Shown here piece by piece: positions 100 to 63,660 of a stretch of DNA of 64,000 nucleotides (positions are counted from its first letter, which is position 1; each line of letters begins with the position of its first letter). The notes beneath the pieces are model-generated. The model had not been told where the DNA came from, ran no database searches, and worked only from the letters and a program-made list of their open reading frames with translations. The stretch comes from Chiloscyllium plagiosum (Eukaryota). Where the stretch lies: positions 5,729,925 to 5,793,924 of the forward strand of contig NC_057746.1 of NCBI RefSeq assembly GCF_004010195.1. Reading direction: 5' to 3'. A program made the translations under genes and the position numbers.

Positions 100-290
100 T
101 ATGTGACCTCTTTCCACCTATCGCATTTCCGACGCCCCTCCCCCAAGTCCCTCCTCCCTACCTTTTTTCTTAGCCTGCTGGACACACTTTCCTCATTCCT
201 GAAGAAGGGCTTATGCCCGAAACGTCGATTCTCCTGTTCCCTGGATGCTGCCTGACCTGCTGCGCTTTTCCAGCAACACATTTTCAGCTT
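100..290 (+). mobile_element. Penelope-derived terminal-repeat fragment (family A) with hammerhead motif
   Basis: cctgaagaagggcttatgcccgaaacgtcg...gatgctgcctgacctgctgcgcttttccagca; the same module terminates the PLE at 17330-19270 and recurs many times. Confidence 0.8.
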
Positions 291-1379
291 AAGTCCATGT
301 GATCGACTGAGAACAGCTATGTGGTTATGTTGAACAATAGTTGATAAAAATGAGCGGATGTGATCTGAAGGGGTTTCCAATGTCTTTCAGGTGAGGCACT
401 TTGTGGGAAATCGGAGTGAGGGTATGGATGACATTTGTGCTGCAGGTCGATCCGGCACTGAGTGATGAATCAGGTAATGACACAGGTCATGACTGGCCAC
501 AATTTGAACTTGTTGGATGGATATTTGTCCTACGAAACAATGATATTTAGAGCAAAAGCGGAAGACAGGCAGCTAGTGCTGTGGTTCTATCAATAGGTCA
601 GTGGTCCAAGGTATCAGGATATGCTCTGGGGAAATGGGCTGAAATCTCACCATGGCAGTTTCTAGAATAAGAATTCAATACCTATTTTTGGAATATAAAG
701 CTAGTCATAGTAATATAGCTGCCACAGATTTACCAGGTCATTGGGCTGCTCTCTCATTACAGATCGACCACTACAGGTGACCTGAGGATCACCACACCTT
801 AGGTGAAGGGAGAGGTTGAGAAGGACAGTCATTCATCGCAACCTCACCTGGTGCAGGAATTGAACTCATGCTGTTGGCACGTCTCTGCATTACAAACCTG
901 CCGTCCAGCCAAGTGAGCTTACCAACCTGCGTTTGCAGTCAGACTGGCAATGATGAAAATATATCTGGATCACTAATGCAATTCTCTCGTCACTACCTGG
1001 TCTGGCTGACAAATGATTCCAGACTCACAGAAATGTTGTTGAATTTTATGGGAGCTGAAGAGGAATAAGGATTGGCCACAAATGCTGGCCTCTCCCGTGA
1101 CACCGGCAACCCAGCAAGGGAAACATCGAACACTGAATGGACAGTAACCTTCAAAAGTTCATCTTGGCTGGAAAACACTTTGAGATCGTTATTGGTCACA
1201 AAAGATGTGATGTAATGTAAGACTGTCTTTTCACTTTCATATTCTTCTCATATCCGCCTACCTTATGACAATCCCACAGTAGATTTTATTCACAATATCT
1301 GTAAAGTTCCCTAACAGAACAGCTCAAATTGGACATCATCTAAACTACAGGACAGTTTGCAAGTAGCATAAACAGCAAG

Positions 1380-2900
1380 TTATAGAGCTAAGTGATCAGA
1401 CAACCAATGGGTCAGATCCATGCTCTGTAATCTTGCCACATCCAGTCGCAGATGGTGGTGAACAACTAAACAACTCACTGATGGAGGCTCCACAAATATC
1501 TCCATCTTCAATGATGAAATTGCCCAACACATTAGCGCAAAAGAAAGGGCTGAAGCATCCACAACAATCTTCAGCCAGAAGTTCCAAGTGGATGGTCTAC
1601 CTCGGCCCCTTTACGGTAACCAGCATCACATGCACCAGTCTTTAGCCAATTCAATTCGCTCTATGTGATATGAAGAAATCATTGGAGGTCCTGGATAGTG
1701 CAATATTTATGGGACCTTACAACCATTCTGTCAACAGAGCTAAAGACTTGTACTCCAAAACTTCCAGGACAGTTACAACATTGGCATTTACCTGACAATG
1801 TGAAAAATTGTTCAAATAAGTCGAGTACACACAAAGCTGAAAAAACCCTACCAAGCTAGTTCCCAGCACATCAGACTCCCCTTGATCATCAGTAAAGTGA
1901 TGGAAGGTGTCATCAACAATGCTATCAAGCATCCCTTTGCTCATCAATAATCTGCTTAGTGATTCCCAGGGTTCTGCCAGGGTCACTCAGCTCTGCATAT
2001 TACAGCCTTAATTCAAAGATGGGCAAAATAAATGAATTCTAGAGGGGGTGAGAATAACAGCCCTTGACATCAAGGCTGCATTTGACCAAGTGTGGCAACA
2101 GGAAGCCGTAGCAAATTTGTAATCAATAGGTATCATGGTGCAAACTCTCCGCTGGTTAGAATCATACCTGGCACATTGGAAGATGGTTGTGGTTATCGGA
2201 GGTCAGTCATCCCAACTCCAGGACACCTCTGCAGGAGTTCCTTGGTGTGGTGTCTGAGGCCCAATCATCTTCAGATGCTTCCTCAATGACCTTCCCCGCA
2301 TCACAAAGTCAAAAGTGTGGATGTTTGTTGATGATGGAACCATGTTCAGTACCATTCGCGACTCCTCAAATACTGAAGCAGTCCAAGTTCAAATGGAACA
2401 AGAGCTGTACAATATCCAATATCAGGCTGAAAACTGACAAGTAACATTCAGGCCACACAAATGCCAGACAATGACTATCTCCAACAAGAGACAATCTACC
2501 CACTCCAGCTTTGCTATTCAATGGTGTTACCATAACTGAATACCCAACTACAAATTGTTTCTGGGATTACCATTGACCAGAAACTTAATTGGGCTCACCA
2601 CATAAACATAGGAAGAGGTCAGAGGTTGAGGAATAATGCAGCAATTAACTCACCTCCTGACTACCTTTAGACAGCACTTCCAAATCCATTATCTTTTCCA
2701 TCTAGCAGGACAACGGCAGCAGATACATGGAACACCACCAACTGCAAGATCCTGACTTTAAATGTACCGCTGTTCCTTTACTGTCGCTGGGACAAAATCC
2801 CGGAATTTCTTCCTGATTGGCATTGTAAGTCAATATACAACATGTGTGGACTGCAACAGTTCAAGAAGGCAGCTTCTCACCACCTTCTTAAGGAAGGACA
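1380..2900 (+). mobile_element. Decayed CR1-clade LINE (RT region and 3' end)
   Basis: Colinear with the better preserved copy at 26800-28490 (cagcccttgacatcaaggctgcatttgac, gcaggagttcct, ccttcaatgaccttccc). Confidence 0.8.
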
Positions 2901-3544
2901 ACAAGCTATTCCCACAAGTAAGTAAATAAAGTATCTTTCAGTGCAGCATCAGGAAAGATTTACATTTCACCTCAAACATTCTCTGGCAAAGAGCACCTTT
3001 CAGACCATTTTATTGCAAATGCGGATGAATCCAAATGATAAACTGGAAACCTGATTGTGTTTCACTGACTGTCCTGCTGCTCGGATCGGAATTATCAGCT
3101 GATCCCAGGCTGTGGGGCTAATTCTGATGAGACCAGACTCCAGTATGACCATAATAATGATAGGTGTCTGATATTTCTTTGATATTCCCTTTCTCCCTCC
3201 TGAACAACAGGCATTATCGTTATCAATCTGAACTCCGTGCTGATTTCACAAATCAGTGCCCAGTATTCTCTGTAGTTAGAATGGTTACAGAAATCCTCGA
3301 AGGAGTCACAGAAGAAAATTGATTCTGGTCAGACTCTAAAAGTTTTAAAATCAGGAGCAACAATAGAAATTTCTGATCATTTGAACAGAAACCATTTCCC
3401 TGAAGGTCCGCACTGGGTCTCAGGGTGTGTTGGTTGTAACTGCTGATCCTGTGTCTGATAATGCTTACGATGTATCATTTCAAAAGATTTTCTGATTTAG
3501 CAGGCTATTTTCAAACTAGACACCAGCAAGCAGTCACTTTTACA

Positions 3545-3550
3545 TTTATT
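3545..3550 (-). terminator. Candidate polyadenylation signal of the class I gene
   Basis: AATAAA on the minus strand in non-repetitive AT-rich sequence about 2.2 kb past the stop; other candidates exist. Confidence 0.3.
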
Positions 3551-4684
3551 AAATCTTTACACACAGTTACATTTACTGAAGTGGACCACATGTCTCAGCA
3601 ATTCTCAACAAGTCTCACTCATCTCCAGTACTGCCTTACACCCTGTCCTATTCAGACAGAAGTTCTGCTCCAGCATGCAGTCTCCAGCTTACAGTTAATC
3701 AAATTATTGCTTTCTGAAAGCTGCAAATTACTGCACCTTCAAAATGTATTCAGGTTACTGCACGGTCAAACATATCAAGAAATGGATCAGTAACACAATT
3801 AATAATCAATGAATCGAAGCTATTTTTATCCAACATGTAAAAGAACACAACTCTTCTCACATTAGGGTAACGATTCTTTCACAACAAGTTCATAACAGGA
3901 TACATCTGTGACAAGCTTTGCATTTTGTGTCACAGTTTGATGATATCTGATGCACATGCTTTCACACCTTATATGAATATTTGCATACTGCAATTTAAAC
4001 TTGCAATACAAACTATTACTCAGTACTTGTTATTAAAAATCAAGAAGAAAAAAAAAACTTAAAGCATGCATATTATTGTCTCATCAACAGGCCTACTCCC
4101 TACCACAACCTCCATCAACACTAATCTCACTCATTGGTCAGTGCACAGACTCTGAACTGGAGCAGAGGAAATGAGAGGATTTAATCGAGGGTTTTCAAAC
4201 TGAAGAGGTGTCTTGATGGAGTCAATTATTTTTCCCTAATAGGAAGAGTCAGTCAAGGTAACAAATGATCATCAATAGTGACAAAGTGGGGAGAGAGATG
4301 AGGAGGAATTTTTGTCAAGTCGTTTGAACAAGGAGAAGGGAATGTAAATTAATTCCAATTTTTTTAAAGGAGAAGTGGGACCAATGTTTGACCCAGTGGC
4401 ATCCACCTGTTGGTCAGGATGCAGAGTTAGCAGGATGAGTCTGTCAGGCTACTGAATTTGGCAACAGAATAGAATTGAACAAGAGGTTCCCAGAAGATTC
4501 ATTTTTCAACATCAGTGCAAAACCAGAAATACGAAGGGACCAGACAAGTTCAGACTGAATAGTTAATATTGGGATTAGTCACTGGATAGAGTCAGTTAGA
4601 CAATGGAGAATGGGAGAAACCATACTTCCCTGAATAAACATGAGTCCGAGAGGCTGACCATATATTGAAAAGCCCAGGTAAGTC

Positions 4685-5330
4685 AAAGTTACAAATCATA
4701 CAGCACCAGATTATAGTCCAACAGGTTTATTGGGAAACACTAGCTATCGGAATGCTGCTCCTTCATCAGGTGGTTGTGGAGTATAAATCATATGATACAG
4801 AACTCATAGCAAAAGACTACAGTGTGATGCCACTGAAATGATATATTGAAAAAAATTGGATGGTTTGTTAAGTCTTTCATCTTTTCGAATGACCATGTTA
4901 GTTTTGGTTCTTTCATATGTAAATCCCAGAACTTTTTTAAAGCTATATTCTCAAGTTAGCTTTAACAATAAGTGCCATCTCAGCTTGAATACTGCATTGA
5001 AGGCATGAGGTTAAAGTCTGTTGGTGTCCCAATGTTCAGACTGATTCTATTTCTAAATTGGGATTTACAGGATCTTACATGGGGTTTGGCAGTTTTGAGC
5101 AAAATAAGATGTAATTCTGCAAGTACAAATTCATCCGACAAAATATTAGTGTGTGTGTGCAGGGCAGACAGAGTAAGTGTGAGCATGTGGATGTGTGTCT
5201 GTGGGGTGTGTGTGCGTGCATGTGTGGGGGTGTGCTTCTGTAATGGGGTATAAGTCTGACAGGGTTTGTGTGTGGGGGTGAGTGTGGGGATTATATGTGT
5301 GAGTGTATGAGAGAGGTGTGTGTGTGTTCA
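4685..5330 (-). mobile_element. Penelope-derived non-autonomous element (family B) with CA-rich tract and mutated hammerhead
   Basis: Homologous to 50070-50607 and 63443-63628; minus strand reads ccacCTGATGAaggagcagcattccGATAgctagtg at about 4738-4773. Confidence 0.65.
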
Positions 5331-5750
5331 ATATACAAGGTTCATTTGTTATTGGGAAGAGAAGCAAGGAATAGTAAGCAGCTGCAGGAGAAGGAGATGA
5401 GTCAAGGAGGGAGAAAAAAGCTTCACTCTCTACCTGACCAGACATTAGCCTTCTCAACCGTGATAAAATTAATCTGTACCTTCCAAAAAATAAATTGATA
5501 TCAATGAAAGCCATGTGTATTAAACGAAACTGAGTGATTCGAGACCAGAGTTATTCACTTCACTTCTGGCATTGATGTCTTTTCCAGACTTGGTCACAAA
5601 ATTGGGTTTTTCTGAGTGGAAAACACAAATGTCAAGTGAGAAAGCAATGATGACATACGGTCCAGTCTCTCCCCCAGTACCACAGGCCCACAGTTCATGC
5701 CGGTTTGGTGTATATTCAGCTGTAAAAATTGCAGAATGTGACTTCATATC

Positions 5751-5797
5751 TCAGGCCAAGGAGAACGAGATAGTGGGTGATTCTCCTGAATCAGTAG
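5751..5797 (-). CDS. MHC class I exon 7, Ser-rich tail STDSGESPTISFSLA*
   Basis: tttccttttacag|CT ACT GAT TCA...GCC TGA; resembles the SD..SS ends of class I tails. Confidence 0.8.
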
Positions 5798-15712: not shown

Positions 15713-15774
15713 ATCTCCAAAAGATCCTAGAATATTTGCAGATCCTATTTTTCACACTGAGAACATGGGACTAG

Positions 15775-15860: not shown

Positions 15861-16614
15861 CTAAAAAAGGTGGGAATGACTATCCATTCACAAGGGACTG
15901 GCCTGAAGATAGATTATGGAGGGACTAAGTTGGGCTTTAGGATCTTCCTGCAGCTGAGTGAGTTTGAGCCTCAGCAAAGACAGCTATCTGATGAAGGGCT
16001 TGGTTCCAGAGGAGAACAGCCTGTCCACAACAGCGAGGAATCTGCCCCAGGGGAAGTGTGAAGACAGCAGGATGAACAATGAAGGGGGTGGAATGTGAAT
16101 GAGGAAATGGTGTAAAAGAGAGGCAAAGAGCAGTGAGGGAAGGAAATGGAGGAAGGAGAGGGGATGGGGCTAGACTAAGGCCAATGAGTGTGCTATTTTC
16201 TATCTTATTCCATGAATCAGTTAGGTGATGTAACTTTTTTTTATCTGTTATTTCTCCAATTTTGTATCTAAGATTGTACCATTAGGAGCCCTCCCTCCAC
16301 ATTATTACCATTACGAGCGACATTGCAAACTTTTCACTGTATTCTTGTACTTGAGAACAGGTGACAATTAACCTAATTCTAAAGTAATTGTACAGAGACT
16401 GAAGGAGGACTGATGGGGTTGTGAATGGGGAGGGAATTGGAGGGCCATTCTGAAGAAGGGTCAAGGGACCCAAAATGTTAAACTCTGCCTTCTCTCATTA
16501 TTTATAGATGATGTCAGAGATGCTACATTTTTCCAAACATTTCTGTTTTTTATTTGTTTTCCAGCATTTGCAGATTTTTTTTTATTTGGAGGGGGAGGCG
16601 AGAAGAAATCACAT

Positions 16615-16955: not shown

Positions 16956-17329
16956 TAGTTCCAGAAAAAAAATCTAAATACAAAACCGAAGGTGTGGCCT
17001 GAGAAACTCAGCAGGTCTGGCAGTATTTGTTAAGGGAAAACAAAGTTAACGTTTCAGGGTTAATGGGAGTGCCTCAAAGTGAAAGGCAAAGGAAGTGTTT
17101 ATGGTGACAAGAACAGATATAGATGTGTCTTCTTTCCAGAGATGCTGCCAGACCGACTTGGGTTTCTCCAGCAATTTCTGATTTTGTTATCACAAAGTGT
17201 ACCTGTTTATGGTGGCTGTTAGTAATAGAAAATATGTTCGAAAAAACAATTTCCAATGAACAGCTGACACTGGAAATCGGGAACTAAAACAGGAATGGGA
17301 AAACTCAGCAGTTCTGGTCACATCTGTAG

Positions 17330-19270
17330 AGAGAGAGAGTCGAGAGTGTGGTGCTGGAAAAGCACAGCAGGTCAGGCAGCATCCGAAGAGCAGCAGAATC
17401 AACGTTTCGGGCAAGAACCCTTCATCAGGAATGAGGTTTGTGGGCCGAGGGGGTAGAGAGATAAATGGGAGGGAATTGGGGCTGAGAGTGCGGGGAGTGG
17501 ATAGGTGGGAAGAAAGATGGACAGGTCATGAGGGCGATGCGGGGTTGAAAGATTGGAACTGAGATAAGGTGAGGAGAGGGGAAATGAGGAAACTAGTGAA
17601 GTCCATATTGACACTGTGTGGTTGGAGGATCCCAAGGCAGAAGATGAGGCGTTCTTCCTTCTCCTGTCAGGTGGTTACGGTGTGGTGATGGAGGAGGCCC
17701 AGGACCCGCATGTCCTTGGCAGAATGGAAGGGGAAGTTGAAGAATTTGGCCATGGGACAGTGGGGTTGGTTGGTGTTGGTGTCCCAGAGATATTCTCTGA
17801 AACATTCTGCAAGTAGACGTCCTGTCTCCCCAGTGTACAGGGGACTGCCTCGGGAGCAACGGATACAGCAAATGACGTGTGGAAGTCCAGGAAAAACTCC
17901 GACGGATGTGGAAGGCTCCCTTGGGGGAGGTGTGGGTGCAGGTTTTGCAATTCCTATGGTGGCGGGGAGGTTGCTGGGAGGGGAGGGGAGGGGAGGGTGG
18001 ATTGGTGGGGGGTGTGGACCTGACAAGGGATTTGTGGAGGGAATGGTCTTTACAGAAATCAAATCGGGTTGAGGAGAGAAATCTCTGGTGGTAGGGTATG
18101 TTTGTAGATGGCAGAAATGGCGAAGGATGATGCGATGTATACAGAGGTTGGTGGGTTGAAAGGTGAAGACCCGGGGGTGAGGGTTCTGTCCTTGTTGCGT
18201 TGGGAAGGGTGGGGTTTGAGGGCGGAGGTGTGAGAAGGTGGATGAGATGTGCTGGAGGGCATCATTGACCACGTGGGAGGGAAAATTGCGATCTTTGAAG
18301 GAGGCGTTCATCTGGTGTGTTCTGTGGTGGAACTGTTCCTCCTGGGAGCAGATGCGGCGAAGGTGAAGGAATTGGGAATAAGGGATAGCATTTTTACAGG
18401 AGGCCATTGACCACGTGGGAGGGAAAATTGCGATCTTTGAAGGAGGCGTTCATCCGGTGTGTTCCGTGGTGGAACTGTTCCTCCTGGGAGCAGATGCGGC
18501 GAAGGTGAAGGAATTGGGAATAAGGGATAGCATTTTTACAGGAGGCACGGTGGGAGGAGGTGTAGTCCAGGTAGCTGTGGCAGTTGGTGAGTTTGTTGAA
18601 GATATCCGAATTGAGTCGGTCACCGTTGATGGAGATGGAGAAGTCCAGGAAGGTGAGGGAGGTGTCCAAGATGGTCCAGGTGAACTTCAGGTCAGGATGG
18701 AATGTATTGGTGAAGCTGATGAACTGTTCAACCTCCTCATGGGAGCATGAGGCAGCGCCGATACAGTCATCAATGTCGCAAAGGCAAATGTGGAGAATGG
18801 TGCCAGTGTAACTACAGAAGATGGACTGTTTCACATAACCGACAAAGAGACAGGCATAGCTGGGGCCCATGGCTACCCCTTTTGGCTGGAAGAAGTGGAA
18901 GGGTTCAAAGGAGGAGTTTTTGAAAGTGAGGACCAGTTCAGACAGACGAATGCGAGTGAAGGTGGAAGAATACTGGTGGGGATGCCAGGTGAGGAAGAAA
19001 GTTAGGGTTTGGAGGCCTTTGTCATGGCAGATGGATGTATATAGGGACTGGATGCCTTTGGTGAAGATGAGACATTGGGGGCCAGGGAAACAAAAGTCTT
19101 GGAGGAGGTGGAGGGTGTGGGTGGTGCCCCGAACACATGTGAAGAGTTCCTGGAAAAGGAGGCTAGCACAGTATCAAGGTATGTGGAGATGAGTTCGGCG
19201 GGTTGGAACAGGCTGAGACAATGGGTCGGCCGGGCCAGTCAGGTTTGAGAGTCTTCGGTCAGAGGTAGAG
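17330..19270 (-). mobile_element. Penelope-like retroelement (RT + GIY-YIG), frameshifted, with hammerhead-bearing terminal repeat
   Basis: MGPSYACLFVG..DIDDCIG (RT); CCIRCSRGSPLYTGETGR (GIY-YIG-like); hammerhead motif at about 17398-17432; internal 142-bp tandem duplication. Confidence 0.92.
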
Positions 19271-19862
19271 CTGGGCAGTGCAGAGAAAGCAGAGTTCTGA
19301 AGAAGGGTCACTGTACTCGAACAGTTAACTTTGCTTTCTACTCACAGATGCTACCAGATCTGCTCAGTTAGCCTGGAAATTGTGTCAGCGCTGCTTAGAT
19401 TAGACCCATGAAAACAGGACACTGGGCTGGAAGAGTTGTCAATATTGACCTACACGCTTGAAAGTTTTTGAACTCAGTGTTGAGAGCTGAATCTATAAAG
19501 TGCCCAATACTAGGGACTAATTGTCCAGCTTATTGTGGGTGTGACTGGAACACTATCCCGGGAAGGTGATTGTGATGGCTGAAGAGTCTGCCACCACAGT
19601 GGTCTGGTCAGGACGGCGAGCAGGAGGGTGCCATTCTCTCTGACCATACTGAACAAGTGATTAACATGTAATTGGCAGCAGTTTTGAGAAAGTGTCACTC
19701 GACTCAAAACATTAACTGCAATTTCTGTTGACAGACTGCTGAGCTTTGCCAGCAATTTGTTTTGTTTGTGATTGACAGTGAGTTTGGAGGTGGGAGAAAG
19801 TGTTTCTTGTTTCTCATCCGTTCGACAGTGGGAACAGTCTCTCCCTGTGTTCTATACAACAG

Positions 19863-20329: not shown

Positions 20330-21850
20330 ATTTCACATCATCCATCTCTGACACTTTGCTTCCTTTCCTTGATCTCTCCCTCTCCATTTTAGGAAATAAA
20401 CTGTCCTTTGCCAACCACTACCTCCCATAGCTACCTTGACTACAGCCCTTCACACCCACCTTCTGTAAGAATTCCATCCCATTATCCCAGATCCTTCACC
20501 TACATCATGTATGATTGGACATATATCCTTCCAAAAACAGCTCTGCTGACATAGCTTCCTTCTTCCATAACCATGCCTTCCCACCCACTGTGTTAACAGG
20601 GCCCTCAAACATATTTCACCTGTTACCAAAGCCTCCACCCTTGCCCCTTACCATCACTCACAACAGTATGATAGGGTCCCCCTTGTTCTCAGTTTTCGTC
20701 ATCGCACAAGCCTCCGCATTCAAAGAACCATCATCTGCCATTTCAGACAAGTACAGCAGCTCACCAAGCACATCTTTCCCACATTTGCCTTGCCTGCATT
20801 TCAAAGATTCTAGATCAGTGGTGCTGGAAGAGCACAGCAATTCAGGCAGCATCCGAGGACAGGCAAAATCGACGTTTCAGACAAAAGCCCTTCATCATTA
20901 TTCCTGATGAAGGGCTTTTGCCCGAAACGTCGATTTTGCCTGTCCTCGGATGCTGCCTGAATTGCTGTGCTCTTCCAGCACCACTGATCTAGAATCTGGT
21001 TTCCAGCATCTGCAGTCATTGTTTTTACCTGCATTTCAAAGAGATGATTCCCTCCAGAACATGGACACGACCCCCCTTTCCATGTAACTGCAGGAAGTGC
21101 CACACCTGCCGCTTCACCTCCTCCCTGCTCACCATCCAAGCGCCTGAACAGTCTTTCTAGGTGAAGCAGCATTTCACCTGTACCTCCTCCAATCTGGTCT
21201 ATTGCATTCGCTGCAACCAATGCCGCCTACTCTACATTCGAGAAACCAAATGCAGACTGGGAAATTGCTTGGCGGAGCACCTTCAGTCTGTGCGCAAGCA
21301 TGACCCTGACTTTCCCATTGCCAATGATTTTCACACAGCATCCCACTCACATTCCCACTTGTCTGTCCTCGGCATGCTGCAATGCTCCAGCAAATCACAG
21401 CAAACTGGAGGACCAACATCTGAACTTCAGACAAGACACCTTACAATCTTCTGGACTTCATATTGAGTTCAACACCTTCAGATTTCTTCCCCTTACTTTA
21501 AGCTTTACTTGTTGCATTCTCTGTCATCATGTCCTCGCGCCTCTCCCCCCAACTCCAGTGGGACTCTGTGTTCTTTCCCGATTGGCAGCTGGGCATAAAT
21601 ATTCTGCCATTTTCACATTCCGATCACTTTATCTGAACGATCAACATCCTTTCTCCTCTCACACTCCAATAGCCCTCATGCTGCCACTGTAGCATAAATA
21701 CTGTCCCCTAGACACTTCGTCAGCTCTGATCAAAAATCATCCAGACTTGAAATGTTAGCTTGCCTTCTCTCCACGGATGCTGCCTGACCCATTGTGATTC
21801 CCAGCATTTTTTGTTTTCAGGATTGATTCCAGCATCTGCAGCAATTTGCT
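20330..21850 (+). mobile_element. Decayed Penelope-like element interrupted by a fold-back insertion
   Basis: FTCTSSNLVYCIRCNQCRLLYIRETKCRLG (GIY-YIG relic); terminal repeat with decayed hammerhead at about 21722-21760. Confidence 0.88.
20793..21042 (+). mobile_element. Fold-back (inverted) PLE terminal-repeat insertion with 15-bp TSD
   Basis: About 93-bp arms 20805-20897 and 20905-20997; TSD cctgcatttcaaaga at 20793-20807 and 21028-21042. Confidence 0.88.
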
Positions 21851-24980: not shown

Positions 24981-25878
24981 GTATTTAGGAATAAGAGTGA
25001 TCTCCACCAAGTTCTGCAATTACAACCCCATTTTTCAGATGCTAGATTAGCAACCATCACTCTGATATTAGTAAACCTTTCAGAATTTATGAACAATAAA
25101 CTCACCATTTGACAAACTCCAAATATGACAATGTTCCTAGATTCTGAAAACTGACCTATAAGCAATGGACAAATATTCTGTATTTTTAATATGGATAATA
25201 ATATGAAAAATATAGAACAATGAGCAGAAGCAGAAGTTGCTGGTAAAACTCCGCAGGTTAGGTAGCATTTGTGGAGAGCAAACAAAGTTAACATCGCAGG
25301 TCCCACGACCCTTCTGCAGAACTTAATTCTCCATGAGCCTATGTCAGAGTGTGTGTGCCCTCCATAGGTCCAGGATGTAAAATCCAGGATTGTGGTGCAC
25401 TCCTTCCGAGCATGCCCTGTACCTGGAGACCTGACCAAACCAACCAATTATTCAGCTCTGAGTCTGCGGTTCAAACCCTTCGCCTCGCTGGTGAATTTAC
25501 CAAGGAAGTCAAAAGGACACGTTGACTATAAAACTTCACCAACAGATTATTGATATTTTATGGGCCATTAACATGCAGATTTATCTGGTCGGACAACAAT
25601 AGACATCGGACACTAAAAAGCTGTGTCCACAACTTCCATATCACCGTGACCATTTAAAGCGGGGTTCACACAAAATAATCCAAAATTTCACTCCATTCAC
25701 ACAAAAGTATTCCAATAATTCGTATGAAAATATTTTTTAGACGGTAATATCCTAACGTCAACATTTATCAGATCTGTCCCAAAATCTTGTGAAAACCCAA
25801 CATCTCCAAAATTTCTCCGACATTGCAGCAAAAACTCACATTTGGTGAGAAAACGTTGGAGAGACGTTCTCAAGAAGT

Positions 25879-26240: not shown

Positions 26241-26395
26241 CAACCCCTCGTGGCGGAATCCGGGATCGCAGCCTTTTCACCAGCCTAAAACAAGCCAGCT
26301 GTACTCCACTAGGAGAAAGTGGGGACCGCAGATCAGGGTCAAAAAGTGTGGTGCTGGAAAAGCACAGAAGGTTAGCTAGCATCGAGGAGCAGGAC

Positions 26396-26430
26396 AGTCG
26401 ACGTTTCGAGCATAAGCTCTTCATCAGTAA
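26396..26430 (-). ncRNA. Minimal type-I hammerhead ribozyme motif (PLE family A)
   Basis: CUGAUGA-A-gagc uuau gcuc-GAAA-C/G-UC; core and stem II intact, stem I weak. Confidence 0.65.
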
Positions 26431-26556
26431 TGTGTGTTCAGTTGCTTGGAGGGCACATCATTGTAGACAAAAAAGAATTGCAGATGCTGGATTCCGAGGT
26501 AGACAAGCAGGAGGCTGGAAGAACACAGCAAGCCAGGCAGCATCAGAAGGTGGAGA

Positions 26557-26591
26557 AGTCAACGTTTCGGGTATAACCCTTCTTCAGGACT
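26557..26591 (-). ncRNA. Intact minimal type-I hammerhead ribozyme
   Basis: aguc-CUGAAGA-A-gggu uau accc-GAAA-C/G-UU-gacu: stem I aguc/gacu, stem II gggu/accc, palindromic AACGUU in place of stem III. Confidence 0.82.
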
Positions 26592-26799: not shown

Positions 26800-28490
26800 C
26801 ATCCAATTTGATTCACTGCAAGTGAAATCTAAAAAACGGCTGGAGACACTGGATACTGCAAAGGCAATGGGCCCTGATAACATTCCGGCAATAGTACTGA
26901 AGATGTGTGCTCCAGAACTTGCCACTTCCATAGCCAAGCTCTTCCAGTACAGTTACAACGCGGGTGTCTATCCGACAATGTGGAGAATTGCCCAGATATG
27001 TCCTATACCAAAAAAGCTGGACAAATCCAACCTGGCCAATTACCGCCCAATCAGTCTACTATCCATTATCAGTAAAGTGATGGAAAGGTTCATCAACAGC
27101 GCTATCAAGCATCACGTGCTCAGCAACAATCTGCTCAGTGATGCCCAGTTTAGGTTTCGCCAGGGTCACTCAGCTCCTGATCTCTTTACAGCCTTGGTTC
27201 AAAAATGGACAAAATTGCTGAATTCCAGAGGTCAGGTGAGAGTGACAGCCCTTGACATCAATACAGCATTTGATTGAGTACGGCATCAAGGATCTCTGGC
27301 AGAACGGGAATCAATGGGTATTAGAGGCAAACACTTCGCTGGTTAGAGTCATACCCGGCACAAAGGAAGATGGTTGTGGTTGTGGGGCTTCAGGACATCT
27401 CAGCTTCAGCACATCTCTGCAGGAGTCCCTCAGGGTAGTGTCCTCGGCCCAACAATCTTCAGTTGCTTCATCAATGACCTTCCCTCTGTCATAAGGTCAG
27501 AAGTGGCCATGTTCACCAATTATTGCAGTGTTCAGCAGCATTCGCCAGTCCTCAGATAGTGAAGCAGTCCATACTCAAATGCAACAAGATCTGGATAATA
27601 TCCAGGCTTGGGCTGACAAGTGGCAAGTAACATTCGTGCCACACAAATGCCAGACAATGACCATCACCAATAAGAGACACATTAACCACTGCCCCTTGAC
27701 ATTCAATGGTATTACCATCACTGAATTCCCCCACTGTCAACATCCTTAGGGTTACCATTGACCAGAAACTCAACTGGACTCCTCACATCACAGTGGCTAC
27801 AAGAGCAGGTCAGAAACTAGCGAGACCATGGTTCCTGAAGAAGGGCTTATGCCCGAAACGTCGATCCTCCTGTTCCCTGGATGCTGCCTGACCTGCTGCG
27901 CTTTTCCAGCAACACATTTCCAGCTCAGTAACTCACCTCCTGACACCCCAAAAATTTATCCACCATCTACAAGGCACAAGTTAGGAGTGTGATGGAATAC
28001 TCCCCATTGCCTGGATGGGTGCAGCTCCAATAACACTCAAGAAACTTGGCACCATCCAGGACAAACCAACCCACTTGACTGGCACCACATCTACAAACAT
28101 TCAATCCCTCCACCACCTCGGTGCTCAGTTGCAGAAGTATGTACTATCTACAAGACGCACTGCAGAAATTCACCAAAGATCCTTAGACAGCACTTTCCAA
28201 ACCCACAATCACTTCCACCTGGAAGGACAAGGGCAGCAGGTACTTGGAACACCACCACGTGCATGTTCCCCTCCAAGCCACTCACCACCCATGACTTGCA
28301 AATATACCACTGTTCGTTCACAGTTGTTGGGTCAAAATCCTGTAATCTCCTCCCTACCCGCATTGTGGGTCAACACACAAGTAGACTGCAGCAATTCAAG
28401 AAGGCAGCTCACCATCACCTTCTCAAGGGCAAATAGGGATGAGCTATCAATGCTGGCCACCTAGCGACACCCAAGTCCCATATGAGAAGA
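26800..28490 (+). mobile_element. CR1-clade LINE RT and 3' end, interrupted by a hammerhead-bearing PLE fragment (about 27830-27925)
   Basis: KAMGPDNIP..NYRPISLLSIISKVME..ALDINTAFD, GVPQGSVLGP; frameshifted. Confidence 0.92.
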
Positions 28491-28607: not shown

Positions 28608-29225
28608 GTGAAGAGTGTAGTGCTGGAAAAGCACAGCAGGTCAGGCAGCGTCCAAGGACCAGGACAATCAACGTATCAGGAATGAGGTTTGTGTGTTGGG
28701 GCTGAGAGATAAATGGAAGGGGTTTGGGGTTGTGGGGGAAGGTAGCTGGGAAAGCAATAAGTGAATGAAGGTGAGGGAACAGGTGATAGGTCAGAGGGGG
28801 GAGTGATGGAAGGGTCTGGACGGTGGTGCCGAGTTGGAGGCTTCAGACTAGGATAATGTAGGGGGAGGGGAGATGAGGAAGCTGTTGAAATTCATATTTA
28901 TCCCGTGTGGTATCAGAACACTGATTGGGAGGGAAATATATCTCTGGTGGTGGGGTTTGTTTGGAGGTGGCAGAAGTGGCGGAGGATGATGTGTTGTTTG
29001 TGGAGGTTGGTGAGGTGGAAGGTGAGGGCCAGAGGAGTTCTGTCCTTGTGTTGGAATAGGTGGGGTTCAAGGATGGTGGTGCGTGAAGTGGAAGAGATGC
29101 ACTGGAGAGCATCGTCAATCATGTGGGAAGGGAAGTTGCGATCGTGAAAAAAGGAGCCCATTTGGGACTTTCTGAGGTGGAATTGGTCATCCTGGGAACA
29201 GATGCAGTGGAGGCGGAGGAATGAC
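28608..29225 (-). mobile_element. Penelope-like element, internally deleted fragment
   Basis: FFHDRNFPSHMIDDALQCISS..IILRHFCHLQTNPTTRDIF matches the ORF of 17330-19270. Confidence 0.85.
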
Positions 29226-29584
29226 TATAGATTGACTTCATAACAGGACCAAATAAATGGATTGGCATCATGTAAATCCAATGTGGTTATGTTGAGAGGC
29301 TGAGTTGATACAATAAGAAAATTTTATTTCTGTTCCGGGAGCTCTGTGAGCCTGTTTGGGTGACATTCAATACTGGGATGGAAATGTGTTGCTGGAAAAG
29401 CGCAGCAGGTCAGGCAGCATCTAGGGAACAGGAGAATCGACGTTTCGGGCATTAGCCCTTCAATACTGTATGGGGGCTATTCCATAAAGCTCCAGTAAGG
29501 TCTGCCACTACTACATTAAATTTAATGAAGTCCTTTGTGCAACAGTTCAATTCACTCTGAGCCTTTCTCAGTATTAGAAAGCTG

Positions 29585-48119: not shown

Positions 48120-51050
48120 TTTAAGAAAAAGAAGGAATCATATGTCAGTTGTAGACAGCAGAGTTCAAGTAACTCCTGAGAAGAGTATAAAGGCAGTAGG
48201 AGGATACTTAGAGGGAAATTAGGAGAGTGAAATGGGGACATGAGATAGCTTTGGCAAATGGATAAATATACTCAGGACAAAAGGGTAAGTAGGGAGAGTA
48301 TAGGGCCCCTTAAAGATCAGCAAGGCCGCCTATGCGTGGAACTGCAGGAGATGAGGGAAGTACAAAATGAGTACTATGCATCAGTGTTTACTGTGGAGAA
48401 GGATTTGGAAGATATAGAACGTGGGAAAATAAATAGCGACACATTGAAATATACCATATTGCAGAGAAGGTGCTGGATGGCTTAAAATGCATAAAGTTGG
48501 ACAAATCCCTCGCACCTGAGGGGGTGTACCCTAAAATGTCATGGGAAGCCAGGGATGTGATTGTTGGGCCTCTTGCTGAGATATTTGTGTCATCAAAAGC
48601 CAAAGCTGAGGTGCCAGAAGACTGGAGGTTGGTTAATGTGATGCCACTATTTAAGAAAGATGGTAAGGAAAAGCCCGGAAACTATAGACCGGTGAGCCTG
48701 ACAACGTTGTTGGGCAAGTTGTTGGAGGGAATCCTGAGAGACAGGGTTTACAGTATTTGGAAAGGCAAGAACTCATTATGGATAGTCAACATGGCTTCGT
48801 GCGTGGGAAATCGTGTACAAAGAGGATTGGCGAGGGCAGAGCGGGGGTGTAATCTATATATTCAGTAACGCATTCAATAAGGATGCTCATCTAGATTGTT
48901 TAGAAAGGTTAGATGACATGGAATACAGGGAGAACTCACCATTTATATAGAACGTAGAACATTACAGCGCAGTACAGGCCCTTCGGCCCTCAATGTTGCG
49001 CAGACCTGTCAAAATAATCTGATGCCCATCTAACCTACACAGTTCCATTTTTATCCATATGTATGTTAAGTGCCCATTTAAATGCCCTTAACATCGGCGC
49101 GTCTACTATTGTTGCAGGCTGTTACGCGCCCCTGCTACTCTCTGAGTGAAGAAACTACTCCTAATATCTGTCCTAAATGTATTACCCCTCAATTTAAAGC
49201 TATGTCCTCCCATGTTAGCCTTCTCCATCCAAAGAAAAAGGCTCTCACTGCCTACTTATCGAACCCTCTGATTATCTTATATGTCTCAACTAAGTCACCT
49301 CTCGACCTTCTTCTCTCCAACAAAAACAGCCTCAGTTCCCTCAGCCTTTGCTCATAAGACTTCCCTTCCATACCAGGCAACATCGTAGTAAATCTCCTCT
49401 GAACTCTTTCCAAAGCTTCCACATCCTTCCAATAATGTAGTGACCAGAATTGCACAGTACTCCAGGTACGACCTTATCAGTGTCTTGTACAGCTGAAGCA
49501 TGACCTTATGGCACCAAAACTCAATTCCTCTACCAAGTGGGCGGCACGGTGGCAGCGCCGGAGACCCGGGTTCAATTCCCGCCTCAGGCGACTGACTGTG
49601 TGGAGTTTGCACATTCTCCCCGTGTCTGCGTGGGTTTCCTCCGGGTGCTCCGGTTTCCTCCCACAGTCCAAAGATGTGCAGGTCAGGTGAATTGGCCATG
49701 CTAAATTGCCCGTAGTGTTAGGTAAGGGGTAAATGTAGGGGTATGGGTGGCTTGCGCTTCGGCGGGTCGGTGTGGACTTGTTGGGCCGAAGGGCCTGTTT
49801 CCACACTGTATTCTAATCTAATCTAATCAATGTCAACACACCATATGTCTTCTTAATAACCCAATAAACCTGGCTGGCAACTTGCAGAGATTTATGCACC
49901 TGGACATCGAGATCTCTCTGTTCATCTACATTGCCAAGAATTTTACCATTAGTCCAGTACTCTGTTCTTGTTATTTCTTCCGAAGTGAACAACCTCACAT
50001 TATTCTGCATTAAACTCCATTTGCCACTTCTCAACCCCGCTCTGCATCTTATCAATGTCCTTCTGATGGATAAAGAAGTGGCTCGAAGGTGGACACGCAA
50101 ACGGCTGCTGCAACAGTAGTAGACTCACCAACATTAAGGGGGATGAATTTACGTTGCAGATTTGTATTTGCAGATAAATTGTATTTTGTTCAAAAAGCAC
50201 ACAATCTGTCAGTAGTCCATCCATGTGATATTTTATAAGTTCCGATAGAACCAGTCTGACTCAAGATCGGGATAAAGACAGACTCTGACCAGACTCACAC
50301 CTTTAATGCCTTGTCGGAGCTGAGATGTCACCATTTTTATTCTGATAAAACATTAAGTTATCTCAGGACTGTGACTTGTAAGAAGTTAGGGATTTATACG
50401 TTAGTGAATTGAAACCTCCACCCGCATTCTATGTGATAAAAGACTTAACAATAATCTAGGTTTGTTCAATACACCGCATCAGTTGTATGACACTTTGATC
50501 TTTTCCTGTAAATTCTGTGTCCTATTATCCTGCCCCACTAGCAACCTGACAGAGCAGCACTCTGAAAGCTTGGACTATAGCCTGGTGTTGTGTGATTTTT
50601 AACTTTGGAGATAGAAGACAGAGTGTGATGGTAGAGGATTACTTTTCAGACTGCAGGCCAGTGACCAGTGGTGTGCCACACAGATTGGTGCTGGGTTGAC
50701 TCCTTTCTGTCATTTTTTTAGTTGTTGTGGATATGAACAGAGGAGGTATAGTTAGTAAGTTTGCAAATTACACCAAAATTGGAGGTGTACTGGACAGCAA
50801 AGGGGTACAGTTAGGGTAAGTAGTCAAGATCTTTTCCCCAGAGTGGGCGAGTGTTGCCTTGATGAAATGAGCTGCCAGAGGAAGTGGTAGAGGCTGGTAC
50901 AATTACAACATTTAAAACGCATCTGGATGGGTATTTGAATAGGAAGGGATTAGAAGAATGTAGGCCAAATGCTGACACATGGGACTAGATTTATCTAGCA
51001 TATCTGGCCTGCATGATGAGTTGAACCGAAGGGTCTGTACATCTCCATGA
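48120..51050. mobile_element. Nested stack: CR1(+) interrupted by CR1(-, 48946-50065) carrying an HE1 SINE (49538-49826), and by PLE family B (50070-50607)
   Basis: PEDWRLVNVMPLFKK..NYRPVSLT (+); QFWSLHYWKDVEALERVQRRF (-); host RT resumes near 50610. Confidence 0.85.
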
Positions 51051-52655
51051 CTACTCTACTTGCTCCTCATAATGTGGTTACCTCCACTTTGAGACGATGG
51101 AATTCAGGCTGGACAACCACTTTGCAGAACACTGATGTTCTGTCAGTACATATGATCCCAAATTTTCAATTGCCTGCCACTTCAACACACCATCGTATTT
51201 CCATGCTGATCTCTCTGTCTTGAGCAGCAGTGCTCCAATGAAACTCAGCATGAACTGGAAGAACAGCAGCTCATTTTCTATTTGGAAACACCGCAGCCTT
51301 CAGGACTCAATATTGAGTTCACTAGTTGTAGGGCCTGACCACCTTATTCCATGTTCTTCCCCAATACACACACATCAGGCCTTGTCATCACTCGGGCTGG
51401 TTTCACCACAGCCAACCTATTTTCACCCCCTAATGGACCCCATTAGAGGCTTTTTTTTTAACTTGCCAGATTGACCTTTATGTTTCTTTGTCTGTCCAAC
51501 TGCTGTTCTCTCTTTTTGGGTTCCATCTCTCCCTCTTATTTACTTCTTCCCCTCTTCCCCCCAAGGAGAAAGTGAGGATTGCAGATGCTGGAGATCAGAG
51601 TAGAAGAGTGTGATGCTGGAAAAACACAGCCAGTCAGGCAGCATCCAAGGAGTAGGAGAGTCGACGTTTTGAACATAAGCCCTTCATCATGAATAAGGGG
51701 GTGGCCCAACAGGGCTGAGAGTTAAATGGGAGGGGGTTGGGGCTAAGGTAGCTGGGAGTGCAATACGTAGGTGAAGGTGAGGGTGAAGGCGATAGGTCGT
51801 AGAGAAGGGTGGAGCGGATAGGTGGGAAGTAGGATGGATAGGTAGGACAGTACCAAATTGGAAGTTGGATTTCTTACCTGCACTTCCACATGTCATCTAC
51901 TGTGTCCATTGCTCTCAATGTGGTCTCCTGTACATTGGGCACTCAGGATGCCAACTTGCAGAGCATTTCAGAGAACATCTCTGGACACCTATACTAGACA
52001 ACCCCATCACCCTATGGCCAAACACTTCAACTCTCCCTCCCACTCTGCCAAGGACATGCAAGTCTTGAGTCTCCTCCAGTGCCAAACACTAACCACCCAA
52101 CGCCTGGAGGAAGAGTGCCTCATCTTCTACCTTGAGACCCTCCAACCGCACAGGGTCAATGTAGATTTCACCAGTTTCCTGATTTCCCCTCCCCCCACTT
52201 TATCCCAGATCCAATCTTCTAACCCAGCCCCACTGTATTGAACTGTCCTATGTATCCACCTTCCTTCCTAGCTATCTGCTCCACCCTGCTTTCTGATCTA
52301 TCACCTTCACTCTGACCTTCAACTATCACACTCCCACCTACCTTCGCCCAGCCCACCTATCTCCCATTTATCTCTCAGCCCTCTTGGGCCTCCCCCCTCA
52401 TTCCTGATGAAGAAGTTATGCTCGAAACATCGAATCTCCTGCTTCTTGGATGCTGCCTGACTGGCTATGCTTTTCCAGCACCATGCTCTTTGAATGCCCC
52501 CCCCTCCCCCCAACCAATCCTTATTTTCAGCATGTATACCAACCTTTTCCTATCAGTCCTGATGAAGAGATTACTGGAGCCAAAACATTGACACTGCTTT
52601 CTCTCCACAGATGCTGCCTCACCTGCTGAATTTCTCCAGCTATTTCTGCTTTTGT
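51050..52655. mobile_element. Nested, partly inverted Penelope-like fragments with hammerhead relics
   Basis: VIYCVHCSQCGLLYIG (GIY-YIG); terminal repeats at 51565-51870 (-) and up to 52490 (+); hammerhead relics near 51660, 52403 and 52555. Confidence 0.85.
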
Positions 52656-53604
52656 TTGCCCTAATCTTAATGCCGTGGCCCTTGTTCTACACTATCACCA
52701 GAGGAATTTCTTTCTAGTTACTTGTTCAACTCATTGATTTTTAATACCTCAATTGGATCTTAATTTTAAACATTCAACAGAATGAAACCTCAGGTCTCTG
52801 CAACTTGTGCTCTCATTTAATCCTTTTAGCCTCAGGAACATTGTGCTAAATCTACATTGCACTCCGTTCAAAACCAGCATATCCTTCCCGAGGTGCAGTG
52901 CCCAGAACTGAACACAGTTCTCTATGTAGGATATAAACAGCTCTGGAAAGTTGGTACATAGCTTCCATGTGGACACAATTAGTTTTGGGGAGGAGAAGTT
53001 GTGGATTATGTTTTCTGTTCAGCATGGTCCTGCAGTAACCTACAGTTTTTTGACAGAGGAAAGCAGGACTGCTAATGCTTGATGTGGTCCAGTCAGATGC
53101 TTAAATGAGTTGTGTACCAGATACACCCAAAGCCTGACATTTCAGACTCCAGAAGCATAGCGATCAACCAGGAAGAAAATAAAATTAAACAAAAAACCAT
53201 GGTCACTGAACTCAAAATCTTAACTCTGTTATCTCTCCACAGATGCAACTCGACGTGAGTTTATCCAGCAATTTCCGTTTTTGTTTGTTTCAGGAAAAAA
53301 ATTAAGGTAATTTCGAGAGCAACCAGATTTTAGGGTGTATATAAGGGAAATGGTTAAACCAGATTGACAACTGCAGAAGCATTGTGGGGAATGGATTGCT
53401 AAAGGGCAGAGATCCTCGGAATTAGAAAGTACTGTCCAAATCATCCAGGGGAAGAGGGTCTTCCAGAAATGGGAACTGATTGATCCATTACACATGTGAC
53501 CTCTATAACCATTGTTTGGATTGTATGATGGGAACGAGCTCCAGCCAGTGTCACTAATGTTTAGTGTCATTTCTAACCATTGAAATTGGGAGCCAGAGTA
53601 AATC

Positions 53605-59570: not shown

Positions 59571-59572
59571 GG

Positions 59573-61284: not shown

Positions 61285-62050
61285 CTTCTGAGTGAAAGTG
61301 ATGACTGCAGATGCTGGAGAGTCAAAGTCAAAAATGTGTGGCGCTGAAAAAGCACAGCAGGTCAGGCAGAATCTAAGGAGCAGGAGTGTTGACATTTTGG
61401 GCAAAACCCTTTCATACTGATGGTTTGGTGATGGGAGGTGAGGCTGTGGTCGAGGGGGCGGTAGGATGAGGTGTTTGTCAATTGGCACCTAGCTTCAGCA
61501 ACGTAGAGTTTGATGCGCCAAACTACCACTGAATCCCCTTTGACTGCTGGTTTAATGGTTGGGTTGGAGGTTGGAGCGGAGGTAGTGGATGGCTGTGCTT
61601 TGCGAGTTTGGAGTGGGTAAGTGAGGTGGACAGGTTGAGACAGTTAATGTCACAGCAGCAGTTGGAGATGAAGTGATCTAGGGCAGGTAAGAGACCAGGA
61701 CCGGGTGTCCAAGAGGATGGACTATGTTTGAGGTGGAAGAAGGGGTCCTCGGACGGTGGGTGGGAGTCACAAACGAAAACGTAAGCATGGAGGTGGAGGA
61801 AGAAAAGTTCGATGTCGCAATGCAAATGGAATTCGTTGACCTGGGAGCATTTTGGGATGAAGGTGAGAGCTTTATTGAGGACTGATCATTCATCCTCAGT
61901 GAGGGGGAGGTCTGAAGGGGATGGTAAAAACTCGGCAGGGCTGGGGGCTGGTGCCTGGCGTACAGCTGGAGTTGGTTTGGCGGGTGCAGAGATTGTCTCT
62001 GTACTTCTGACTGAAGTTGTGTTATTGCAGCTCCACTCATCAGGCAAATG
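61285..62050 (-). mobile_element. Penelope-like element 5' ORF fragment joined to a terminal repeat
   Basis: SDLPLTEDE.SV..KALTFIP..VNEFHLHCDIELFF; terminal repeat at 61285-61420. Confidence 0.75.
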
Positions 62051-62839
62051 AATAGAAACCATCAGATAGTCAGTTTTTAAGAGACTTGAGGAACCAGGTA
62101 ATGAAAACATTAAACATCAAAAAGGCTCATGGAATATCTCAAGGAAGAGAATACAAGGTGTTGGAAGTCATGTTTAAGTGATACAAAGCTCTGGTTTGAC
62201 CAGACTTGGAATATTGGGAGTAGTTCTGGGCCTAGATTAGAGTGGTGCTGGAAAAGCACAGCAGTTCAAGCAGCATCCGAGAAGCAGTAAAATCGACATT
62301 TCGGGCAAAAGCCCTTCATCAGGATACGGATGAGTTGGACCGAAGGGTCTGATTGAGTTATATGACTCTGTCCTGCTAATGGACTGTGGAGAGAGGCTGT
62401 ATCAAGAAGGTTAGTTGCACTCCAACTCCCCGCAAAATAAACTCCCAGATTTGCTTGACAAATTCAGCAGGTCTGGCAGCAACTGTGGGAAATAGCAGAG
62501 TTAACATTTTCAGTTCAGTGACTCTTCATCAGAACAGAAACGTTAACTCTGTTTTGTTCCCCACAGATACTGCCAAATCTGCTGAGTTTTGCCAGGAATT
62601 TCTGGTTTTGTTTCAGGAAATTCATGTTGCTCCAGAAATATTTGGACTGGCTGTGAGAGTGGTTCATCAGAGAGTCCAACCACTCTGTCCTTTCTTTCCT
62701 CTTCGGCTTCACCAATTTCGTTATCCACTTTGGGAGCAAAAGCAGGAAGGCAGACTATTAGCTCAGTGGCTACAAACTGAGAGCGGGGAATGTGCAACAA
62801 TACATGGGTGGCTTCCTACACCAGTCGCTGAAGGTAAGC

Positions 62840-63660
62840 ATGTACATGTAGCAGGTGTTGACCTTCAAGATGAGGGGATACAGGAGCAAGAATATTTGTT
62901 GCAATTACACATGGCCTTTGTCAAACTACACCTGGAATATCATGTGCAATTTTGATCTCCTTATCTGAGAAAGCATGTTCTTACTATAGAGGGAGTGCAG
63001 CAAAGGTTTACCAAATTGATCCCTGGGTTGGCTGGACTGATATGAGTAGAGATTGAATTAGTTAGGATTATATTGACTGGAGTTCATAAGAATGAGTGAG
63101 AATCTCAAAAGAAACCTACAAATATCTATCAGGACTAGATGCAAATACAGGAAGAATGCTGCCGATTGCAGATGTGTCTAGAAAGTCCCAAGCTATGGAA
63201 CCAACCTGTTAGGATCGAGATGAGAACTTTTTTTGTTTTATCCAGAGAGTGGCAAGAATGTGGGATTTGCTACCTCAGAAAACAGTCACAGACAGAACAT
63301 TCAAAACATCCTTTCAAGAAGGATCTGGACCAGAGCACTTGGAGCGAAAGGAATCAAAGGATATGGTGGGAAACATGGGACAGGCAATTGAGTTTAATGA
63401 TTAGTCATGATTACAATGAATGGTGGTGCAAACTTTAAGGATCAAAGTTAAAAATCACACAACACCAGGTTATAGTCCAACAGGTTTAATTGGAAGCACA
63501 CTAGCTTTCGGATTATCACCTGATGAAGGAGCGACGCTCCGAAAGCTAGTGTGCTTCCAGTTAAACCTATTGGACTATAACCTGGTGTTGTGTGATTTTT
63601 AACTTTGTACCGGCATCTCCGAATCTTGAAGGATCAAATATGCTAATCCTGTTTCTATTT
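62840..63660 (+). mobile_element. Decayed CR1 3' part with a fold-back PLE family B insertion at 63437-63638
   Basis: LQLHMAFVKLHLEYHVQF; about 70-bp arms 63443-63512 and 63538-63607; TSD aaggatcaaa. Confidence 0.82.
63517..63551 (+). ncRNA. Intact minimal type-I hammerhead ribozyme (family B)
   Basis: cac-CUGAUGA-A-ggagc gac gcucc-GAAA-G/C-UA-gug: stem I cac/gug, 5-bp stem II, palindromic AGCU in place of stem III. Confidence 0.82.

Follow-up and report, generated by a model that had tools for sequence, protein, structure and literature searches.

Minimal hammerhead motifs in a Chiloscyllium plagiosum locus are end modules of Penelope-like elements, and their stubs probably record a capped mRNA start

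We analyzed a 64,000-nucleotide stretch of the Chiloscyllium plagiosum genome (assembly GCF_004010195.1, contig NC_057746.1, positions 5,729,925 to 5,793,924; hereafter the window), which carries many copies of a short module composed of a minimal hammerhead ribozyme motif and a tail. A preliminary description listed about 20 intact or decayed minimal hammerheads here, derived from at least two families of Penelope-like elements (PLEs), and all 20 sites do lie on copies of this module, with coordinate offsets of up to about 35 nt. A strict minimal-hammerhead descriptor (stem I of at least 2 bp, CUGANGA, stem II of at least 4 bp, and GAAA-NN-UH) finds seven matches in the window (the intact copies in Table 1), whereas 100 dinucleotide shuffles gave 0.01 on average and at most 1. 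The remaining 13 motifs fail the descriptor, being decayed or truncated inside the core. Hidden Markov models of the tails identify 31 modules, including 11 beyond the earlier list, with none in the reversed sequence; the window copies themselves belonged to the training set of these profiles.

The motifs are genuine minimal hammerhead sequences of the PLE type. They show the open helix I, the helix II and the conserved core (CUGANGA...GAAA...UH) of type I minimal hammerheads, together with an unpaired nucleotide before helix II, the pair G10.1-C11.1, and a palindromic 15.2-16.2 (ACGU or AGCU), in agreement with the earlier statement that stem III is reduced to a palindrome. The descriptor values are uniform, with bulge=1 and x3=2 in 7/7 window matches and x3=2 in 42/42 genome-sample matches. 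Using stem sequences we assigned copies to families, for which the letters A to D are our own labels. Family B has helix I AGUU/AACU, helix II GGGUC/GACCC and the palindrome ACGU; family C has CAC/GUG, GGAGC/GCUCC and AGCU; and a D-like copy at 26587 has AGUC/GACU and GGGU/ACCC. In the dominant family A, helix II is GGGC/GCCC or GAGC/GCUC, the palindrome is ACGU and the core is intact in 63/93 copies, but the stem I pairing described previously shrinks to 2 bp followed by a U-U mismatch (69/93 copies); it holds in B, C and the D-like copy. An Rfam scan of the window returned 11 matches at E<=5, all below gathering scores, and the hammerhead family was absent among them; they comprise miRNA-type matches to fold-backs plus other weak ones.

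The stems had also been described as covarying, which is true of the differences between families, where compensatory changes are present: both-sided stem changes occupy 82 cells among 96 distinct model-aligned copies, compared with 32.4 in shuffles (0/500). However, two pair-type covariation measures show no excess over shuffles (139/500 and 387/500), the alignment had been fitted to the structure, and it contains few independent events. A GC/AU swap is seen in 12/93 family A copies. The catalytic positions decay at the neutral rate, and nothing in the copies points to selection for ribozyme function. In family A the core is mutated at 33/930 positions and the tail at 85/2325, in a set filtered for at least 27/36 matches, which lowers all core-region rates; G12 is mutated in 12/93 copies, like other CpG sites. 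Minimum free energy (MFE) folding of eight single modules yields z-scores of -1.2 to +0.8, none significant, and folding energy is thus no evidence either way. In fold-back copies the motif is predicted to lie buried within hairpins of -77 to -181 kcal/mol.

Lunse, Weinberg and Breaker have reportedly described cleavage by hammerhead dimers. Three same-strand pairs of mixed family lie 155-210 nt apart in the window (26427/26587, 52404/52559 and 62322/62532), with the ACGU palindrome in common, and heterodimers may formally be possible among such pairs. For the reverse-strand pair 26587/26427 a constrained dimer fold has -38.2 kcal/mol, 2.3 kcal/mol from the MFE of -40.5, and a single complete strand-swapped site is predicted to be possible for a dimer of these two copies.

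The modules are the end part of ordinary Penelope-like retrotransposons and not a separate ribozyme family. In families A, B and C, longer copies continue upstream into remains of an open reading frame (ORF) encoding a GIY-YIG endonuclease, so that the PLE derivation proposed earlier stands for these three families. Reverse transcriptase (RT) remains were found in families A and C, and GIY-YIG only in B. The element ending at 17428 on the reverse strand retains an RT DD motif, a cysteine linker and a GIY-YIG domain in decayed form; a single ORF with RT followed by GIY-YIG endonuclease is the organization of endonuclease-bearing (EN+) PLEs. Pfam gave zero matches on the window's own decayed PLE frames. 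The long family C copies carry both RT and GIY-YIG remains, albeit with a weak RVT_1 match (E=3.5e-5, below the curated cut-off), and the idea that family C is ORF-less and non-autonomous was rejected on these remains. A search with a longer protein recovered seven relatives, six with RVT_1 on record; the best, named from the bamboo shark Chiloscyllium punctatum, has 88% identity over 38% of the query. Because a CX2-5CxxC linker, which marks Neptune and Nematis (PMC8557442), lies between RT and endonuclease in families A, B and C, the elements likely belong to the Neptune clade.

Family A shows how the module is placed in a complete element. It lies directly before the ORF start in four loci (L043, L067, L400 and L401), and in L400 and L401 the order is 3' untranslated region (UTR), hammerhead, tail and ORF start, a canonical pseudo-long terminal repeat (pLTR), L400 also having the endonuclease end. 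The family A module is therefore both leader and end of the element. A first look past the tail had found almost no continuing sequence among 237 copies, and the continuation was later found via L067 and L043. A pLTR or partial tandem, an inverted 5' copy, an optional tail and a target-site duplication (TSD) are all present, as in other PLEs.

Two further observations concern the start of the ORF. Two family A2 insertions (L043:1050-1620 and L039, minus strand) join the first ~170 nt after the tail, which is the ORF start, to the 3' UTR at nearly equal ORF positions and different UTR positions; these joints possibly reflect a preferred zone of template jumping or internally deleted units of ~490 nt. 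The N-terminal part of the PLE ORF includes a Thr/Ala/Pro-rich low-complexity region (L067:3900-4500 and L401:100-460).

The window had been described as an array of ribozymes scattered through an immune and zinc-finger locus. The immunoglobulin and C2H2 context is real but incidental to the motifs. Module density is near the genome background, and the locus is not special in this respect. In the 3.56 Gb genome, one exact 30-nt pattern of family A occurs 49,325 times, one pattern of family C 14,834 times and one of family B 338 times, whereas the reversed controls yield 0. Sampling of 100 evenly placed 10-kb segments gave 301 modules in 961,537 bases, a density of 20.0 per 64 kb (20.6 in the 40 samples outside training), which extrapolates to ~1.1 million genome-wide, about one per 3 kb. 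The descriptor search suggested previously, run on the window and on 579,914 sampled bases, finds 33 intact motifs in the latter (3.6 per 64 kb, and by extrapolation about 200,000 genome-wide) compared to seven in the window. The window, which had been selected because of its motifs, shows only a mild excess (bootstrap P(>=31)=0.03), and locus-specific enrichment was rejected as an explanation. Such motifs are thus a genome-wide background in this shark-like genome, and "ribozyme arrays" seen in single windows are not specific to a locus.

Nor do the copies form an array in their arrangement. Same-strand neighbors within 500 nt are found for 50/301 sampled copies, where density predicts about 15%, and head-to-head pairs greatly outnumber tail-to-tail pairs (58 vs 7). 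No tandem repeats of the module were seen in the window or the genome samples, and neighboring modules in the window belong to different families. The flanks of the short copies, or stubs, are mutually unrelated, and several short copies carry their own TSDs; four window insertions are flanked by TSDs of 10-16 bp. In three loci (L141, L144 and L224) family A modules sit at the same T-rich spot that ends family C tails, which suggests that existing tails are preferred as targets.

The ends of the copies are informative about the template that was copied. We mapped ends by anchoring on the tail only, with positions given relative to the predicted cut site, and kept 224/301 modules with at least 80% identity; the others lay at an edge, contained N, had no tail alignment or fell below 80%. 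The 3' ends peak at +60-69 (74/224) and +90-99 (74/224), matching the two internal RT start sites and the tail of the anole PLE PAc (PMC11167929). The 5' ends are common at -37..-28, at or just before C3 (67/131 at risk; hazard 0.057/nt), and rare at the cut site (-3..+3; 8/197 at risk; hazard 0.006/nt, the background rate), and the candidate in which 5' ends are created at the cleavage site was rejected. The subset with at least 90% identity has the same shape (28/58 at the hammerhead edge and 4/94 at the cut site), and both a first-pass mapping and copies read by eye agree with the pile-up. Another 40/224 copies reach beyond -150. The pile-up sits on TCATTC in family A and on TCAGTY in families B and D, sequences that we take to match the initiator consensus. 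The possibility that helix I holds a splice acceptor, as reported in D. virilis, was considered and put aside: CAG precedes helix I in B and D and not in A and C, and the stubs showed no upstream exon in common.

Many stubs, 95-135 nt long, begin four bases before the ribozyme core and are preceded by an extra G. We examined this in genome-wide copies of subfamily A1 in which homology stops at the A of ATTC and the preceding bases are not UTR, and G precedes that A in 531/867 copies, against 26% expected from local trinucleotide frequencies. Copies ending one base shorter or longer have G in 22/100 (32% expected) and 32/100 (30% expected), respectively, using the first 100 listed and counting by eye. 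Among 30 loci, G is present in 10/15 fold-back and 10/15 non-fold-back junctions, and its presence is therefore independent of target DNA. Four TSD insertions have an identifiable target (the near-duplicates L331/L332 counted as one, L334, L335 and L348), and in these the target itself reads GAT; at L344 the G is non-templated. A source subfamily carrying G at this position was rejected, as the 30 loci share no upstream sequence except for inverted arms and one duplicated pair. G-ATTC starts are also found at the window copy at 31925 and in two copies with an ORF start (L375 and L391), and one contig joint goes back to the initiator-like A with G between. In L1 insertions an extra G, also within microhomology, is an accepted trace of the mRNA cap (PMC11702581, PMC9578705). 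The G excess here is specific to one position. We think it likely that it records the cap, the copied RNA having been capped and uncleaved. A literature search that left aside supplements and subscription journals found no report of a cap-derived G or a run-off origin for PLE stubs. A match resembling a downstream promoter element (compare PMC2377424) overlaps GAAACGU; having one mismatch and lying two bases off, it was put aside as a lead only.

The explanation that we prefer, and regard as probable, is that the stubs are run-off cDNAs from the capped, uncleaved 5' end of the PLE's own mRNA, and that the motifs belong to its hammerhead-plus-tail end module. The architecture, the end distributions, the G excess and the neutral decay are observed; how start, priming, run-off and joining would proceed is inferred. 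RNA polymerase II would start at the initiator-like TCA(+1)TTC, so that the mRNA would begin with the 5' strand of helix I as its initial 4 nt. The element's RT-endonuclease would nick target DNA, begin copying internally at one of the two tail sites, as PAc does in vitro, and run off at the cap, which would be copied as C and hence appear as G, with a stub as the product. Two such cDNAs, from the two cut strands, could join head to head to give a fold-back, for which self-priming on an antisense template has been published as an alternative (PMC3846280), and longer copies would arise when copying begins in the downstream module or jumps. The template is taken to be capped and uncleaved because the 5' ends lie at helix I plus G and not at the cut site, which fits the finding that hammerhead cleavage by PAc is not needed in vitro (PMC11167929). 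Dispersed copies would be dead on arrival, as single and mostly decaying ribozymes. If cleavage has a role, it would be in the source transcript, through dimers or aided by protein, and it would strip the capped first ~32 nt from dimer-forming transcripts.

With slightly less assurance, we favor a broader proposal: the minimal hammerhead constitutes the first ~32 nt of a capped mRNA, with its initiator overlapping helix I, and the roughly one million stubs are strong-stop-like cDNAs, the ribozyme being a decapping or dimer-sensing switch on tandem transcripts, or a promoter or protein-binding leader, and not a template processor. The shortness of helix I would be explained by a capped start there, and the proposal names an exact start site. 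About a million insertions thereby become an in vivo read-out in which template ends avoid the cut site and bear a likely cap signature at helix I, a pattern that argues against cleavage or circularization as the main template route for these families. The role of PLE hammerheads has been termed unclear (PMC8557442).

Several observations weigh against this interpretation. The 5'-end pile-up is broad, covering about 20 nt (-46..-22) and not a single base, and family C has no clean initiator match. Alignments may stop falsely at the hammerhead edge if the UTR of a subfamily has no reference, although the subset with at least 90% identity and the copies read by eye still agree. The G is mostly also present in the target or inverted arm as microhomology, and is clearly non-templated in only 1-2 of 20 G junctions; the large G test covers subfamily A1 only, and the counts for B and C are small. 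Of 39 ORF-start copies fetched, 31 were viewed and ten of these show the core; six of the ten extend further into the UTR and two begin G-ATTC. Module-containing RNA is present in a single-cell polyA run, but the 2% of its reads that were searched show no pile-up of starts or ends and are about equal on both strands. The start site is thus read from DNA fossils only.

The most serious alternative, to which we give perhaps a third of the weight of the run-off explanation or slightly more, is plain 5' truncation: the RT would start in the downstream module and stall or resolve just past the hammerhead because of RNA structure, a bound protein or ATT microhomology with the target, with no transcript start involved. 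Such truncation is reported as standard PLE behavior (PMC4209133, PMC8557442), it accommodates the copies extending beyond -150, the anole endonuclease is reported to prefer ATT (PMC11167929), and AT or GAT microhomology with the target is seen at several junctions. However, structure would be expected to halt the RT before or inside the hairpin and not after it, and the G excess is found at one position only, including in fold-back junctions where there is no target DNA. We therefore consider truncation unlikely, albeit not negligible.

The preliminary description instead proposed a non-autonomous, retrozyme- or SINE (short interspersed nuclear element)-like family, in which short units are transcribed, self-cleave or circularize, and are re-inserted in trans. 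The huge copy number, mostly without an ORF, is what such a family would give; pLTRs can act in trans in rotifers (PMC3846280), pLTR-derived tandem retrozymes have been reported, among others in one chondrichthyan (bioRxiv 10.64898/2026.07.22.740005), and L043 contains one internally deleted ~490-nt unit with a partial second tail. Against this, module tandems are absent from the window and samples, same-strand neighbors are near chance, unit ends are at the cut site only at the background rate, flanks are unrelated, and the catalytic bases decay neutrally. Stub sequences are moreover colinear with autonomous elements, the longer copies carrying the PLE ORF, and have no 5' head of their own. 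This reading is largely refuted for these copies, and we find it improbable. That the motifs are co-opted ribozymes regulating transcripts of the immune and zinc-finger locus is more doubtful still, to the point of being scarcely credible: module-containing RNA does occur and the pair 26587/26427 could form a dimer site, but the density is that of the background, 13/20 motifs fail the descriptor, the catalytic bases decay neutrally, and fold-backs bury the motif in long hairpins.

The motif class is already known, and it is the likely capped start that goes beyond the 2014 description by Cervera and De la Pena (PMC4209133), which reported single minimal hammerheads from truncated PLEs and opposite-strand pairs. 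The metazoan pLTR motifs of that report also have CUGANGA, a bulged nucleotide, G10.1-C11.1 and a palindromic 15.2-16.2, fall into several consensus families, and occur mostly singly or as opposite-strand pairs 100-700 bp apart. The scale differs, with ~200,000 intact motifs and ~1.1 million modules here and 4,000-9,000 motifs in coelacanth and Xenopus, as counted with different descriptors; helix I of the main family here is only 2 bp, and element 5' ends, mapped here, were not mapped to the ribozyme in the sections of that work that we consulted. The anole Poseidon element PAc (Frangieh et al. 2024, PMC11167929) resembles the elements described here in several respects: its RT starts at two internal sites beyond the hammerhead, which accounts for the tail, RNA that has not been cleaved serves as the main substrate, and both DNA strands are cut and extended. 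It belongs to another clade, distinct from the elements with the CX2-5CxxC linker, and its first ORF ATG is within stem II, whereas here it lies ~135 nt beyond the cut site. For PAc, the 5' end in vivo was not mapped in the sections of that report that we consulted, and DNA fossils here point to a capped start at helix I.

The non-LTR retrozymes (Cervera and de la Pena 2020, PMC7229834; Li et al. 2026, bioRxiv 10.64898/2026.07.22.740005) are likewise small, PLE-related and equipped with type I hammerheads. They are described as head-to-tail tandem units of 150-450 bp with circular RNAs and, in the 2020 paper, canonical hammerheads, in contrast to the solo or head-to-head minimal motifs here. 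Known PLE insertions share the inverted head-to-head copy, the optional 30-40-nt tail and the 10-16-bp TSDs, and an initiator-like sequence was noted in a rotifer pLTR as well (PMC8557442, PMC3846280); here, however, the commonest product is the module alone, and the inversion points are in or at the hammerhead.

Table 1. Hammerhead-plus-tail modules and associated PLE remains in the window. C3 gives the position of that core nucleotide.
Feature	Coordinates	Strand
Family A1 copy: 94 nt UTR, descriptor-intact hammerhead (C3 199, predicted cut after 226), tail	105..289	+
Family C 3' end, about 470 nt UTR; hammerhead near 4763, A14 mutated (GAUA for GAAA)	4677..5161	-
Family B short copy, decayed	16447..16536	+
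Additional decayed family B modules, absent from the earlier list: 16992-17056 (-), 17127-17189 (+), 17274-17335 (-)	16992..17335	
Decayed, 5'-truncated, likely Neptune-type PLE: RT, CxxxxCxxC linker, GIY-YIG, 3' UTR, hammerhead (C3 17428, descriptor-intact), tail	17342..19266	-
Family B short copy, decayed; inverted neighbor at the 5' end of the long element	19294..19385	+
Head-to-head fold-back insertion of family A2 with a TSD of 15 bp; the + strand carries an intact hammerhead (C3 20904), the inverted arm is at 20805-20897	20793..21042	
Family B-like 3' end: endonuclease remains, decayed hammerhead near 21725, tail	21075..21832	+
Family B short copy, decayed	25221..25325	-
Same-strand pair: an intact D-like copy (C3 26587; AGUC/GACU) and a family A copy whose own stem I is disrupted (C3 26427)	26336..26591	-
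Family A1 short copy, begins 3 nt before core; descriptor-intact (C3 27835)	27832..27925	+
Family A3 copy, hammerhead deleted, ORF remains nearby; absent from the earlier list	28608..29222	-
Family A1 short copy cut inside core, 10-bp TSD	29376..29466	-
Family A fold-back insertion, 16-bp TSD; + arm begins G-ATTC at 31925 (C3 31930, G12 lost)	31795..32021	
Family C copy, hammerhead deleted; absent from the earlier list	50425..50609	+
Family A3 copy with UTR; core decayed	51564..51740	-
Family A3 3' end with GIY-YIG remains; hammerhead decayed (C3 52404)	51874..52491	+
Family B copy, decayed	52522..52658	+
Family A module (core truncated) fused directly to an internal N-terminal PLE ORF piece, without 3' UTR	61292..61975	-
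Family A2 short copy, descriptor-intact (C3 62322)	62234..62326	-
Family B fold-back, decayed (C3 62532 on -)	62449..62616	
Family C fold-back insertion with a TSD of 10 bp; the + strand carries an intact hammerhead (C3 63520; CAC/GUG in stem I, AGCU in stem III)	63437..63638	

Apart from the modules, the window contains an immunoglobulin C1-set exon at 9334-9711 on the reverse strand (Pfam PF07654, E=2e-11), which looks MHC-like by eye, and C2H2 zinc-finger arrays at 44295-45785 and 59573-60217, also on the reverse strand, the first with Pfam confirmation. A near-perfect 142-bp tandem duplication is present inside the decayed PLE ORF at 18263-18546. An abundant repeat of ~315 nt with 90-98% identity is found at 22609-22926, 39874-40188, 46495-46753, 49553-49831 and 54390-54704, and is presumably a shark tRNA-derived SINE. 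The window also holds many fragments of CR1-like long interspersed nuclear elements.

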